A stretch of 64,000 nt of DNA from Escherichia coli (lineage in GTDB: Bacteria > Pseudomonadota > Gammaproteobacteria > Enterobacterales > Enterobacteriaceae), in assembly GCF_051903065.1 (NCBI RefSeq), contig NZ_CP178438.1; one strand, 5' to 3'. The position numbers were made by a program. The first letter of the stretch is position 1. Each line of letters begins with the position of its first letter. Of this stretch, positions 56,401 through 59,400 are shown in pieces.

Positions 56401-59400
56401 ATGAAGTCACCACCGGCAGCGGCACGGTAGAACCCTCCGGGCGCGAACAGGTGGTGCAGTCGCTGGAAGGCGGAATTCTGTATCATCTGAACGTGAAAGT
56501 TGGCGATATTGTCGAACAGGGCCAGCCGCTGGCGCAGCTTAACCGCACCAAAACTGAATCCGACGTCCAGGAAGCGATGTCGCGGCTGTACGCGGCGCTG
56601 GCAACCTCGGCGCGGCTGCGGGCGGAAGTGAGCAATAAACCGTTGGTCTTCCCTGACGAACTGAATAAATTCCCCGAACTTATCGAGTCGGAAACGGCGT
56701 TGTACAACACTCGCCGCGACGGGTTGAACAAAGCCACCACCGGGCTGACGCAGGGGATTAGCCTGGTCAACCGTGAACTGGCGATGACCCAGCCGCTGGT
56801 GAAACAGGGGGCGGCGAGCAGCGTCGAAGTGCTGCGCCTGCAACGCCAGGCCAATGAACTGGAAAACAAACTCAGCGACGTGCGCACGCAATACTACGTT
56901 CAGGCGCGGGAAGAGTTAGCGAAAGCCAATGCGGAAGTGGAAACCCAGCGTTCGGTGATCCGTGGGCGTGAAGACTCCCTCACCAGGCTCAACTTTACTG
57001 CGCCAGTTCGTGGCATTGTTCAGGATATTGACGTCACCACGGTTGGCGGCGTCATCGCCCCCGGTGGTAAACTGATGACCATCGTGCCGCTGGATGAGCA
57101 ACTGCTGATTGAGGCAAAAATCTCCCCGCGCGATGTGGCGTTTATCCATCCGGGGCAAAAATCGCTGGTGAAAATAACTGCCTACGATTACTCCATCTAC
57201 GGCGGCCTGCCGGGAGAAGTAGCGGTGATATCACCAGACACCGTGCAGGATGAAGTGCGGCGCGATGTTTATTACTATCGGGTGTACATTCGCACTTTCA
57301 GCAACCATCTGGAAAACAAAAGCAAACAGCAGTTTCCGATATTCCCCGGTATGGTGGCGACGGTCGATATCCGCACCGGCAAAAAAAGCGTGCTGGATTA
57401 TCTGTTGAAACCCTTTAACAAAGCACAGGAGGCGTTGCGCGAACGATGAACATTAGCGATGTAGCAAAAATTACCGGCCTGACCAGCAAAGCCATTCGCT
57501 TCTATGAAGAGAAGGGGCTGGTGACGCCGCCGATGCGCAGCGAAAATGGTTATCGAACCTACACGCAGCAGCATCTCAACGAATTGACCTTACTGCGCCA
57601 GGCGCGCCAGGTGGGCTTTAACCTGGAAGAGAGCGGCGAGCTGGTGAATCTGTTTAACGACCCGCAGCGTCACAGTGCCGACGTCAAACGTCGCACGCTG
57701 GAGAAGGTGGCGGAGATTGAACGGCATATCGAAGAACTGCAATCTATGCGCAACCAGCTACTGGCGCTGGCGAATGCCTGCCCCGGTGATGACAGCGCCG
57801 ACTGCCCGATTATCGAAAATCTCTCCGGCTGCTGTCATCATCGGGCGGGGTGATTAACGCTTGCGAAAATAGTCGTCCATTATTTTCGTCAACTCCGGAC
57901 GTTCGCCGTCATCATTGATGGCAAAATCCAGAAAAAAAGCATCTGCTTGCGGCGTTCGGTTTTGCGCCATCAACCGGAAGGTGAGGGGGCGATAACTGAC
58001 GTATGCCGGATAGCTGATAACGAATCGGGCAAAGTCAATAAAAAGCGGCGAGTGTGTGAAAAACAGCGCCTGCAAAATTACATCAGCCTTTTCATCCTCC
58101 CCCAAACCTTGTTGGATCATGCTCTTAATACGAGTTTCGCTCAAATTCCCGGCCTCAACAATTTGCCAGGCTTGATCCAGTGAAGGGTACCGGCTGACGC
58201 TCTGCTGCAACTCTTCTGACCAGGTTTCGGATGGGCTGATGTGCTTATCAGGGCCGAAACTCTCCCATGCGCCGGACGGTAATGTTTTCCACTCAGTGAG
58301 TTTGGGAACGTGGCACAGTAGCTCTGTTTTGTGCAGACATTCTCCGCCCGGAAATACCAGGGTTTGTTGCTCATCATTAAAACGGGTTGCCGTGCTGAGT
58401 ACCAGTGTTTTGAGCGGTCGCCCTTCCAGTGCGGCAGCAGTGGCCTTATGGTGCCCGTCGAGCAGAACGCAGAGATAGGAATCAGGGAGATACCAGGCCA
58501 AAGCGCGGGCGTCCGGTTTATCGCGATAAAACGTCACACGCTCAGGATTAAAATGTGATGGCGGCTGTCCAGGAAGAAGAAAACAGGGGGCGGTGTTACA
58601 GAAATAGCAATATTCAGGATCCCAGACGGCAACGGTTGCCGGATTACTGGCGCTATGGTCCGTTGCCGCCCAAAAGAAATGCCCATTGCCATCCGTCGGG
58701 TAAAGTTCACGATCTTCCAGCAGATAATAGCCATCAGCAAGGCATGAGAACAGCGGTGTAAGCGCGGCAAAAGCGTCCGTAAAGCCAGACCATGGGCGAT
58801 TCCAGTTTTCGAGAGCAGACAAAAACCGGGCGGCTCCCTGTTCATCATCCGCAAAACCGCTGTAGACAAATTCCGCGCAGGTGGGGCAGCCGGCCTCGGA
58901 CCAGAAACGTATTACCGGGACATCCTGCCAGCAGAGTGAACGGATAAGCCCATAAGGGTGCGGATCGTAAAGCACACATTGACGCAGAAATCCTTTACCG
59001 GACTTCACCGAAAAAATGACGCCCGCAGCGGTATTTTTCAGCAGACGTACTTCAGGTTTTCGAAAGGGAAAAAGCATGGCCACTCCTTAGCCGAATATTC
59101 AGAACCCTGAACTGTGCCAGAAAATTACGCTGGTGACTATTGCTCTGGAAATGGTAACGGTATCCTTACCCATTAATCCCCGTTTGCACCGAAAGAATAT
59201 GCTGCAAACTTTCTACCATAATGCGCCCCGACTGAAATAAGCCTTCCTGGATTTCGTTGTTAACATTCACAGCGTGAACCAGGGAGGCTAATAATACTAC
59301 TTGCAAGAAGGCAAAAATAAACGCACCGATAATCATAATATGCGTCAGGGGTATTTTCCTTTGCTCCTTCATTTTAAATAACCCACGAACTGGCCTTCTT

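Follow-up and report, generated by a model that had tools for sequence, protein, structure and literature searches.

The closest described system to the one analyzed here is OI-28 of EHEC O157:H7 EDL933 (tolC28, rtxA28/rtxB28, hlyB28 and hlyD28), all five genes of which respond jointly to RstA and Ca2+ (PMC12758282, 2025). In the window that we analyzed, a 64,000-nt stretch of Escherichia coli DNA, the secretion locus occupies the same ybaT-cueR site with the same gene order, the same RstA box 5' of the TolC-like gene and the same ATGA overlap with cueR, and synteny with EDL933 identifies it as OI-28; in tblastn its adaptor protein matches the O157 type at a rounded 100% identity. The two loci also differ. 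The adhesin gene siiEA is one intact ORF of 6925 aa here, whereas RefSeq gives the EDL933 copy as a pseudogene interrupted by an internal stop, and the two "RTX proteins" of PMC12758282 are therefore its two halves. The ABC gene is frameshifted here and intact in EDL933, and O157 lacks the 407-aa gene that abuts cueR in the window, a 67-aa gene ending 3 nt past cueR there. More distantly, the Salmonella SPI-4 (siiABCDEF) and BapA systems likewise join a giant Ig-repeat adhesin to dedicated TolC-like, ABC and HlyD-family parts, a likeness drawn from names and components, but they lie at other chromosomal sites with no link to cueR.

Two further comparisons concern cueR itself, the gene for the Cu(I)-responsive MerR-family regulator. 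In Enterobacteriaceae outside Escherichia, copA and cueR are divergent neighbors about 108 nt apart with ybbJ close by, as seen in a comparison of 80 loci. Salmonella, Citrobacter, Enterobacter and Klebsiella, which have this arrangement, share with the window the same CueR (82 to 91% identity) and the same copA operator, whereas in Escherichia copA and cueR are split by 28 kb (window positions 29122-57445) and cueR is without its original Shine-Dalgarno (SD) element and any promoter that the shared intergenic region held. The contact between the adaptor gene and cueR also has a geometry identical to that of the ATGA overlaps of translationally coupled bacterial operons; unlike the genes in such pairs, however, cueR is functionally unrelated to its partner and has its own transcription start within the upstream gene, and the coupling is putative. 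We consider it probable (roughly 0.8) that the two tight junctions of cueR are fossils, left at the edges of old rearrangements around a core gene, and not a strain-specific regulatory device. The features discussed are collected in Table 1, with gene coordinates from the window ORF list and the RefSeq annotation of E. coli ECNB21-M121 (NZ_CP083585.1), which is 100% identical to the window.

Table 1. Features at and around cueR in the window, in order of position
Feature	Position	Strand	Basis or remark
copA promoter with CueR operator (presumed)	29090..29120	-	Dyad CCTTCC-N7-GGAAGG, -35 TTGACC (copA strand); single exact window match
glsA and ybaT	29312..31539 (glsA 29312-30244, ybaT 30247-31539)	+	ORFs, K-12 annotation; part of block parting copA and cueR, Escherichia only
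RstA box upstream of tolC28	31583..31596	+	Exact match to TAATTCAAATTACC, motif from PMC12758282
TolC-like outer-membrane protein gene	31877..33232	+	TIGR01844, 416 bits, cut-off 225
siiEA, giant adhesin gene (secreted substrate)	33335..54112	+	Intact ORF; RefSeq "BapA-related adhesin SiiEA"
Type I secretion ABC permease/ATPase gene	54116..56277	+	RefSeq pseudogene, "frameshifted"
HlyD-family periplasmic adaptor gene	56274..57449	+	Full length, native C-terminus ...LRER-stop
Likely cueR promoter inside adaptor gene	57273..57286	+	-10 TACTAT 57273-57278 (by reading), start A 57286 (EDL933 TSS)
Last ~97 nt of adaptor gene, kept in K-12-type genomes as ybaT-cueR spacer	57350..57445	+	Alignment with K-12
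cueR, 135 aa	57446..57853	+	RefSeq, K-12 orthology
Very stable hairpin in last 75 nt of cueR	57777..57849		Folding
Stop-to-stop junction	57851..57856		Sequence; TGA (57851-57853) then TTA (57854-57856), 0-nt spacer
Convergent 407-aa gene, uncharacterised conserved family	57854..59077	-	RefSeq start 59077; ORF 57854..59083
68-aa gene	59166-59372	-	RefSeq, ORFs
Lipoprotein gene	59369-59791	-	RefSeq, ORFs
YadA-like trimeric autotransporter	59876-60925, ORF to 61678	-	RefSeq, ORFs
120-aa gene	62027-62389	+	RefSeq, ORFs
REP-like palindromic element (candidate); islet right edge	62413..62494		Sequence; gives ybbJ its replaced last codons and stop
ybbJ (NfeD family)	62492..62950	-	RefSeq; direct convergent cueR neighbor in K-12 and other Enterobacteriaceae

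The two junctions of cueR

A first-pass annotation of this sequence had described cueR as overlapped at its ATG by the adaptor TGA, with its ribosome-binding site inside the adaptor coding sequence and its stop directly adjoining that of the convergent 407-aa gene, and each of these features is found in the sequence and the ORF list. The overlap is the 4-nt ATGA at 57446-57449 (+ strand), where the adaptor's terminal CGA TGA meets the ATG AAC of cueR, an upstream stop overlapping a downstream start as in translational coupling. The sole SD-like element of cueR, AGGAGG at 57427-57432, falls within the adaptor codons Q-E-A, 13 nt 5' of the ATG. The adaptor belongs to the HlyD family by its score against TIGR01843 (328.2 bits, cut-off 208.65), and its alignment reaches the final residue of E. 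coli HlyD chain 8dck_C (...LHER), giving it the native L(R/H)ER end. The window CueR is CueR by its single substitution relative to K-12 (D103N) and its retained Cys112/Cys120 metal loop, CPGDDSADC.

It is highly improbable that these contacts are chance or annotation artefacts produced by a mis-called start or stop or by assembly error, even though the frameshift in a short A-run of the ABC gene could be a sequencing error, since the M-N-I-S-D start of CueR is conserved over 80 loci, the adaptor ends at its family's native C-terminus, and hundreds of independent complete genomes have identical sequence at the junctions. As a pattern, the ATGA overlap does not go beyond chance expectation. Three other 4-nt overlaps fall in a 9-kb part of the window (ABC/adaptor, 56274-56277; 68-aa/lipoprotein, 59369-59372; ybbJ/qmcA, 62947-62950), and cueR begins with (A/G/T)TGAAT in all genera examined, so that a +1-frame TGA is inherent in its first two codons. 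Among 5426 complete E. coli genomes, 959 have the adaptor-cueR junction, which is likewise intact in Escherichia sp. E1V33 and in E. whittamii; it is old, fixed in Escherichia and already annotated in RefSeq, and is not particular to this strain.

Downstream, K-12 has the identical TGATTAA with likewise 0 nt between the stops, but with ybbJ as the partner; zero spacing is the norm for cueR and was not created by the accessory gene. The gap between cueR and ybbJ in Enterobacteriaceae is mostly 6 to 20 nt and at most about 30, with 0 nt in Trabulsiella and an overlap in Salmonella. The 3' end of cueR folds into a hairpin with a minimum free energy of -42.4 kcal/mol (z = -5.8 against shuffles; z = -3.5 against 300 synonymous recodings, 1 of which was as stable). 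Similar excess stability is seen in four other Escherichia haplotypes, whereas it is absent or weak (z from -1.9 to +1.0) in 8 of the 9 other genera tested, the exception being K. spallanzanii. The hairpin is followed by no U-tract on either strand and so does not have the form of an intrinsic (Rho-independent) terminator, and the 160 nt past the cueR stop likewise lack a U-tract and show no significant folding (z = -1.6). An Rfam scan of the whole window gave no match at the adaptor-cueR-407-aa site, and the supplements of PMC7815308 hold no entries for the cueR 3' end in K-12. With intergenic space absent, the hairpin may act as a 3'-end or bidirectional stop signal, a suggestion that belongs to the tentative regulatory reading given below.

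Transcription and translation of cueR

Published start site maps bear directly on how cueR is transcribed. Cappable-seq of EDL933 places a start assigned to cueR (gTSS 604687, RS02800) 160 nt upstream of the ATG in 8 of 8 conditions, and the tolC28 start in 6 of 8 (PMC10469882, supplement 6). Between 57200 and 57460 a single nucleotide (57221) separates the window from EDL933, leaving the promoter region identical, and all secretion-positive Escherichia lineages have an invariant sequence around 57286; given this identity, cueR likely starts at 57286 in the present strain as well. Cappable-seq of K-12 gives starts at -114, -85, -38 and -20 (relative read scores 3.7, 49, 100 and 2, respectively; PMC4782308), the last two mapping to window positions 57408 and 57426. 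K-12 cueR transcripts thus begin at -85 and -38 and not at -160, a contrast that could partly be method, as the two data sets come from different laboratories with different thresholds. The -160 promoter has a poor -35, and a consensus scan of 56900-58500 returned neither a promoter nor a terminator on the + strand, although such a scan is uninformative because the mapped cueR promoters have weak -35 elements. The 160-nt cueR leader has unremarkable structure (z = +1.15). A literature search for a cueR promoter, or for a link between cueR and type I secretion, found nothing; a sigma-54 site described within ybaT was considered for cueR and rejected, as it lies 26 kb away in this strain.

The first-pass annotation had suggested that cueR may be co-transcribed with the secretion genes and had set this against the discovery of a dedicated promoter. 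Such a promoter is largely in hand in the EDL933 start at -160, within the adaptor gene and in sequence identical here, and a primary 5' end at that position in every condition is not what an adaptor-cueR unit transcribed only as a whole would give. Read-through into cueR is possible, because the + strand has no terminator-like site upstream of it, but it is not required, and cueR appears largely free of dependence on it.

A stronger version, in which cueR is the functional last gene of the secretion operon, expressed mainly from the tolC28 promoter under RstA and Ca2+ and translated by ATGA coupling, we regard as unlikely. It would account for the overlap, for an SD whose long 13-nt spacing might gain from coupling, for the lack of a + strand terminator-like site between adaptor and cueR, and for the joint response of the five OI-28 genes. 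However, the cueR 5' end in EDL933 is detected in more conditions than the tolC28 start, and the same SD serves cueR expression in the 82% of E. coli without the operon. The frameshifted ABC gene upstream would favor polarity in this strain, the EDL933 adhesin gene has its internal stop, and cueR is never mentioned in the OI-28 paper (PMC12758282). A monocistronic cueR mRNA from -160 also argues against obligatory coupling of adaptor and cueR translation. Somewhat less doubtful, but still tentative, is a mixed output in secretion-positive Escherichia, with a constitutive intra-adaptor promoter supplemented by RstA/Ca2+-activated read-through from the adhesin operon, ATGA coupling aiding the poorly spaced SD, and the hairpin serving as a stop signal; copper homeostasis would in that case be co-tuned with adhesion.

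Origin and age of the flanking blocks

The left edge of the Escherichia-specific block can be read from other genera. Homology on the copA side stops at GGTCAAG (~29121) and on the cueR side begins at the ATG, and by this alignment ~29121 is the edge of the block. The 31-mer next to it, whose dyad we take to be the CueR box from what is established about the copA promoter of E. coli, recurs, identical or nearly so, 8 to 40 nt before the cueR start codon in Salmonella, Citrobacter, Enterobacter, Klebsiella and Kluyvera, and in none of the 75 loci from outside Escherichia do glsA and ybaT separate copA from cueR. Within the block, the adhesin gene has a GC content of 0.59 to 0.63, compared with 0.48 in the downstream islet and about 0.51 in the flanks. 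The high GC of siiEA shows that the block was once foreign and gives no date.

Alignment with the K-12 ybaT-cueR and cueR-ybbJ regions, which the first-pass annotation had proposed as a check, locates the breakpoints. K-12 lacks 25.8 kb upstream of cueR and 4.6 kb downstream, where its 0-nt cueR-ybbJ contact lies. Most of the 124 nt between ybaT and cueR in K-12 correspond, in decayed form, to the 3'-terminal ~97 nt of the adaptor gene (~95% identity), with the same SD and ATGA, and in K-12-type strains RefSeq/PGAP calls this remnant a pseudogene. About 82% of the 5426 complete E. coli genomes, K-12 included, share this one 25.8-kb deletion (window ~31568-57349). The common breakpoint is apparent among secretion-negative genomes, in which 32 of the 33 rows sampled from the sub-80% matches begin at query position 301, and the left edge of the deletion has only a 3-nt GTA microhomology. 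The -10 (TATTAT) of the K-12 -85 promoter sits on the deletion junction. E. albertii carries a degenerate secretion-system remnant at cueR, in a species comparison that leaves out E. fergusonii. Together with the intact junction in E. whittamii and E1V33, these remnants bear out the earlier proposal of an old secretion block that the K-12 lineage has lost.

The right-hand block, which had been placed in the same category, fares differently. Presence/absence mapping over the 5426 genomes gives a 0-nt cueR-ybbJ contact in 3204, the O157 type, with its 67-aa gene at a 3-nt gap from cueR, in 1245, and the abutting 407-aa gene in 310. YbbJ of K-12 ends in AVSS-stop, like AVSST-stop in Salmonella, whereas all haplotypes with the islet or REP end in AVIA-stop followed by the REP element, a candidate assignment that we make from its resemblance to the E. 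coli REP consensus. The K-12 contact and YbbJ C-terminus thus match the arrangement of Salmonella and Enterobacteriaceae, leaving loss from K-12 unsupported on this side. The 407-aa/YadA-like islet is more likely an old insertion, a polarity that rests on two YbbJ C-terminal residues and parsimony. The 407-aa gene is present in both E. albertii and E. whittamii, and the K-12 right junction would therefore be a retained polymorphism or re-acquired. The 407-aa family has invariant CPTC and LDGHH motifs and 115 homologues from Escherichia, Salmonella and Clostridia, with no significant match to a known function in Pfam, NCBIfam, PADLOC, a PDB sequence search or Foldseek (confident model). The idea that the gene is ancestral at cueR in Salmonella was rejected, the Salmonella homologue lying between rihA and an Hsp70 gene.

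That cueR sits between two accessory blocks without mobility genes agrees with the RefSeq annotation, which lists no integrase or transposase across the ABC-adaptor-cueR-islet region and the 3' part of siiEA. A search for direct or inverted repeats flanking the islet (57854-62491) found only short pairs at chance level, and by annotation and repeat search alike the region does not look like a mobile genomic island. Recent insertion of both blocks into a K-12-like chromosome, with the precise junctions as insertion scars, would fit their GC departures and the ancestral look of the K-12 right-hand junction, but it is very improbable. For the left block it is already contradicted by the decayed piece of adaptor coding sequence in K-12. 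The same junctions occur in E. whittamii, E1V33 and E. albertii, mobility genes and flanking repeats are lacking, and even cueR itself diverges by 5 to 8% among haplotypes, which is deep and not recent.

With old rearrangements as the preferred reading, a history of the locus can be proposed. Its starting point is shown by the other genera, with copA and cueR divergent and separated by about 108 nt, the copA promoter under CueR control just 5' of the cueR ATG, and ybbJ convergent at a small gap. In an ancestor of Escherichia, glsA-ybaT and the TolC/SiiEA/ABC/HlyD operon then came to lie, probably through a single event, exactly between the copA -35 and the cueR ATG, replacing some 9 nt that carried the old cueR SD. 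From then on cueR borrowed its SD (AGGAGG, 13 nt) and its promoter from the adaptor 3' end, as the start site shows for EDL933 and sequence identity suggests for the present strain. The 25.8-kb deletion took away the secretion genes together with the -160 promoter while sparing the last ~97 nt of the adaptor, and the K-12 starts at -85 and -38 may compensate for that loss. On the other side, the stop-to-stop contact would be ancestral; comparison of haplotypes suggests that the islet inserted between both stops, taking the old stop of ybbJ and leaving ybbJ a new end in the REP element, and that it later decayed through nested deletions to the O157 type and an ST131-like remnant.

Consequences for CueR and for OI-28

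Much of this is already known. OI-28 is a characterised island, RefSeq annotates the overlap, PGAP flags the remnant, and a published supplement lists the intra-adaptor cueR start. In the strain studied here, the ABC gene has lost 1 nt in an AAA run at ~55513, a single indel when aligned with the intact EDL933 gene, and it is the only one of the four components (TolC-like, ABC, adaptor and substrate) that is broken. Barring a sequencing error at the indel, this strain probably has no active OI-28 secretion system.

The position of cueR also matters for genetic work on OI-28. Because the mapped cueR promoter and the gene's single ribosome-binding site are both inside the adaptor gene, deleting hlyD28 cleanly, or OI-28 as a whole, would be expected to affect CueR too unless the final ~200 nt were left in place. 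The 2025 study of OI-28 does not address such a side effect; it reports complementation of the hlyD28 mutant (PMC12758282), which argues against a large CueR effect on the adhesion phenotype.

More generally, cueR offers a case of borrowed expression signals, in which a core regulator severed from its ancestral promoter by an insertion lived off foreign coding sequence and, where the foreign genes have been deleted, is transcribed from promoters in, or at the edge of, their remnant.

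Junctions of cueR

The first-pass annotation had placed cueR between two accessory blocks, overlapping one and touching the other stop to stop, and both junctions are borne out by sequence reading. The end of the HlyD-family adaptor gene and the start of cueR share ATGA, and the only Shine-Dalgarno (SD)-like element of cueR, AGGAGG, lies within adaptor codons, 13 nt 5' of the ATG. Directly 3' of the cueR TGA is TTA, the stop of a convergent ORF annotated in RefSeq as a 407-aa hypothetical protein. The chromosome of E. coli ECNB21-M121 is identical to the window.

Features of the cueR region and of the wider window
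Feature	Window position	Strand	Remark
Rfam: dnaX frameshift element, sroB, three naRNA4 (REP-derived) copies	11134-11198, 24875-24958, 19121-19198, 26256-26434		as expected for that part of the E. coli chromosome
copA 31-mer	29090-29120		copA promoter and CueR operator
Putative K-12-type deletion	~31568-57349		25.8 kb
TolC-family gene			upstream block
siiEA, "BapA-related adhesin SiiEA"	33335-54112		upstream block; one intact 6925-aa ORF
ABC permease/ATPase gene	54116-56277		upstream block; frameshifted
HlyD-family adaptor	56274-57449	+	ORF reading
-10 of cueR, TACTAT	57273-57278		
cueR start mapped from EDL933	A57286		
AGGAGG	57427-57432		
cueR	57446-57853	+	ORF reading
cueR 3' hairpin	57777-57849		~25 bp
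Islet	57854-62491		includes the 407-aa and YadA-like genes
407-aa gene	57854-59077	-	downstream block
Small genes			downstream block
YadA-like autotransporter	59876-61678	-	downstream block; annotated 349 aa
300-nt direct repeats	60649-60948, 61018-61317		94% identical, 369 nt apart
REP-like element			downstream block
ybbJ-qmcA			beyond the REP-like element

The secretion locus is O-island 28 (OI-28) of enterohemorrhagic E. coli, described in 2025 as a type I secretion and adhesin system activated by RstA and Ca2+, in a paper that does not mention cueR (PMC12758282). While the adhesin ORF is intact in the window, siiEA of O157:H7 strain EDL933 is interrupted, being a RefSeq pseudogene with an internal stop (EDL933 locus L086, 6354-26513), and the rtxA28 and rtxB28 genes of that paper are therefore two halves of one interrupted gene. 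The ABC gene has lost a single base in an AAA run at ~55513 relative to EDL933; unless this frameshift is a sequencing error, the strain probably has no active secretion system.

The junction geometry is not unusual. Three further four-base overlaps occur within 9 kb of the same window, and cueR starts with (A/G/T)TGAAT in every genus examined, so that a +1-frame TGA is inherent to the gene. The tight downstream contact, previously viewed as peculiar, is found in K-12 as well, where cueR (513993..514400) and ybbJ (514401..514859, minus strand) are likewise 0 nt apart; both K-12 and the window read TGATTAA, the first four bases past the cueR stop being alike. Of 5426 complete E. coli genomes, 3204 have the K-12-type cueR-ybbJ contact, 1245 have an O157-type contact in which a 67-aa gene terminates 3 nt past cueR, and 310 have the 407-aa gene abutting cueR; in others, such as Ecol_276, a decayed remnant of that gene abuts cueR. 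The adaptor-cueR junction occurs in 959 of the 5426, and the full combination seen in the window in at most 100 genomes.

Probable arrival and loss of the secretion block

The terminal ~97 nt of the adaptor gene align with the 124-nt ybaT-cueR spacer of K-12 with a few substitutions and small indels, the SD and ATGA being unchanged; in K-12-type strains PGAP labels this remnant a frameshifted, N-terminally missing pseudogene. In 32 of 33 sampled rows for secretion-negative genomes, the match starts at one and the same query base (window 57350), which points to one shared 25.8-kb deletion, with GTA microhomology at its edge. Escherichia sp. MOD1-EC7003 has the same breakpoint as secretion-negative E. 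coli. The overlap is intact in E. whittamii and Escherichia sp. E1V33, and in E. albertii the remnant is more decayed, with its last 24 nt, SD included, identical. Intact overlaps or remnants in these lineages and in K-12 support the earlier proposal of an ancestral secretion block that the K-12 type has lost.

Older events can be seen in comparison with 75 loci that CueR recovered outside Escherichia (Salmonella, Citrobacter, Enterobacter, Klebsiella, Kosakonia, Kluyvera, and others), none of which has type I secretion, glsA, or ybaT genes next to cueR. Most of them have a divergent copA-cueR pair with ~108 nt between the genes, and some, from Citrobacter and elsewhere, have copA several kilobases from cueR. 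The copA promoter and CueR operator (AGGTTAAACCTTCCAGCAAGGGGAAGGTCAA) is located 8 to 40 nt upstream of the cueR start in these loci, and the same 31-mer is found at copA in Escherichia. Homology to the outgroups on the copA side ends right after the 31-mer and resumes exactly at the cueR ATG, so a 28-kb block comprising glsA, ybaT, and the secretion operon stands where outgroups have ~9 nt containing the old cueR SD (GGGGGA). Because the adaptor aligns with HlyD through its final residue, with its stop at the native position, the ATGA is the fused edge of this insertion. All loss variants examined (K-12 type, MOD1-EC7003, and E. albertii) keep the adaptor 3' end, we infer because it holds the only ribosome-binding site of cueR.

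Compared with its K-12 counterpart (locus L002, 5994-6401), the cueR allele shows 5.5% nucleotide divergence, rising to 8% in the 3' half, and a single amino acid change. For a core gene of E. coli this is an unusually deep split, suggesting old cueR haplotypes linked to flanking presence/absence variants. In SCPM-O-B-8794, a GTDB "E. coli" representative (L009, 8001-8444), the secretion locus is decaying, with partial genes for the outer-membrane protein, the ABC protein, and the adaptor; its cueR shares just ~92% identity with other E. coli alleles and has lost its stop, running into a REP-containing spacer to give 147 aa.

The cueR-ybbJ islet

Loss from K-12 had also been proposed for the right block, and this is not supported. 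Outside Escherichia, the end of ybbJ mostly lies 6 to 20 nt from the cueR stop (up to ~30 nt in a few genera), with 0 nt in Trabulsiella and an overlap in Salmonella. The K-12 YbbJ C terminus (..HIRAVSS*) resembles that of Salmonella (..RVRAVSST*), and every haplotype with the islet or its remnants has ..IIRAVIA* followed by the REP-like element. We infer that the K-12 contact is ancestral. The islet would then have been inserted between the two stops, the 407-aa gene taking the old TAA of ybbJ. The islet is old, as E. albertii, E. whittamii, E1V33, and MOD1-EC7003 all have the 407-aa gene directly against cueR, and it is more likely an old gain than a K-12 loss; the O157-type and Ecol_276-type arrangements look like nested islet deletions. 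A different, unrelated insert of ~2.9 kb lies between cueR and ybbJ in another compared locus (L016, 8408-11256) and ~20 other Citrobacter, Kosakonia, Phytobacter, and Siccibacter loci, carrying 238-aa and 720-aa minus-strand ORFs and overlapping the cueR stop by 4 nt. The junction seems to be a recurrent, tolerated insertion site.

The 407-aa gene belongs to a conserved uncharacterized family of 115 homologues in Escherichia, Salmonella (at a different locus), Superficieibacter, and Clostridia/Ruminococcus, with invariant CPTC and LDGHH motifs. The protein had no Pfam, NCBIfam, or PADLOC matches. Its AlphaFold model is confident (pLDDT, 86; pTM, 0.86) with no significant PDB match; the weak top structure matches (Noc, free serine kinase, and 1vk1) seem to have ParB/sulfiredoxin-like folds, and a homologue is labeled "ParB-like nuclease domain protein" in one source. 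The annotated start and length (349 aa) of the YadA-like adhesin are tentative, as its open frame runs for 600 aa from a TTG and contains the 300-nt direct repeat.

Transcription of cueR

Dependence of cueR on cotranscription with the secretion genes is not borne out, as EDL933 and K-12 data each reveal a dedicated promoter, the finding that the first-pass annotation had itself named as contrary evidence. Cappable-seq of EDL933 places the one gene-specific start of cueR (RS02800, 604847..605254) at 604687, within the adaptor gene and 160 nt ahead of cueR (PMC10469882, supplement 6). This start was seen in 8/8 conditions, namely LB, M9, acid, and salt, each in exponential and stationary phase; for comparison, the tolC28 start was seen in 6/8 (PMC10469882). 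The cueR start can be mapped onto the window because 57200-57460 differs from EDL933 by one base, 65 nt upstream of the start. No variation in the promoter stretch was seen among the secretion-positive Escherichia lineages sampled. K-12 lacks the -160 region, and its Cappable-seq starts lie at -114 (relative read score, 3.7), -85 (49.2), -38 (100.3), and -20 (2.0) (PMC4782308, supplement 1; U00096.2 coordinates, offset 777). The -10 (TATTAT) of the -85 start, second strongest by this score, sits on the 25.8-kb deletion junction (L002, 5896-5909), and the deletion itself seems to have given rise to this promoter. Therefore, cueR has a dedicated promoter in both haplotypes. Operon read-through into cueR is still conceivable, since no terminator-like site was found upstream on the plus strand, although the ABC gene ahead of it is frameshifted in this strain.

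At the 3' end, the claim that there is no room for a terminator holds: the two genes have nothing between them, and no canonical terminator lies within 140 nt. However, the final 75 nt of cueR form a very stable hairpin (minimum free energy, -42.4 kcal/mol; z = -5.8 versus shuffles), exceeding 299/300 synonymous recodings of the same peptide in stability. The same excess is present in K-12, Ecol_276, E. whittamii, and MOD1-EC7003 and is absent or weak (z, -1.9 to +1.0) in 8 of 9 other genera tested, K. spallanzanii being the exception. Lacking a U-tract, the hairpin was not called a terminator; it may be a 3'-end or bidirectional stop structure embedded in the coding sequence. EDL933 Cappable-seq also records, in three stationary-phase conditions, a "downstream antisense" start in the 67-aa gene, aimed into the cueR 3' end (605353, minus strand; L086, ~30354); in the window, this gene lies 1.3 kb further from cueR.

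Overall, the observation is confirmed and its first interpretation was partly right, in the ancestry and loss of the secretion block, and partly wrong, in islet loss, operon dependence, and the peculiarity of the downstream contact. The structural facts are all already annotated or published, and the evolutionary reading is routine comparative inference. In practical terms, the only consequence is that deleting hlyD28 or OI-28 also takes away the cueR promoter and SD.
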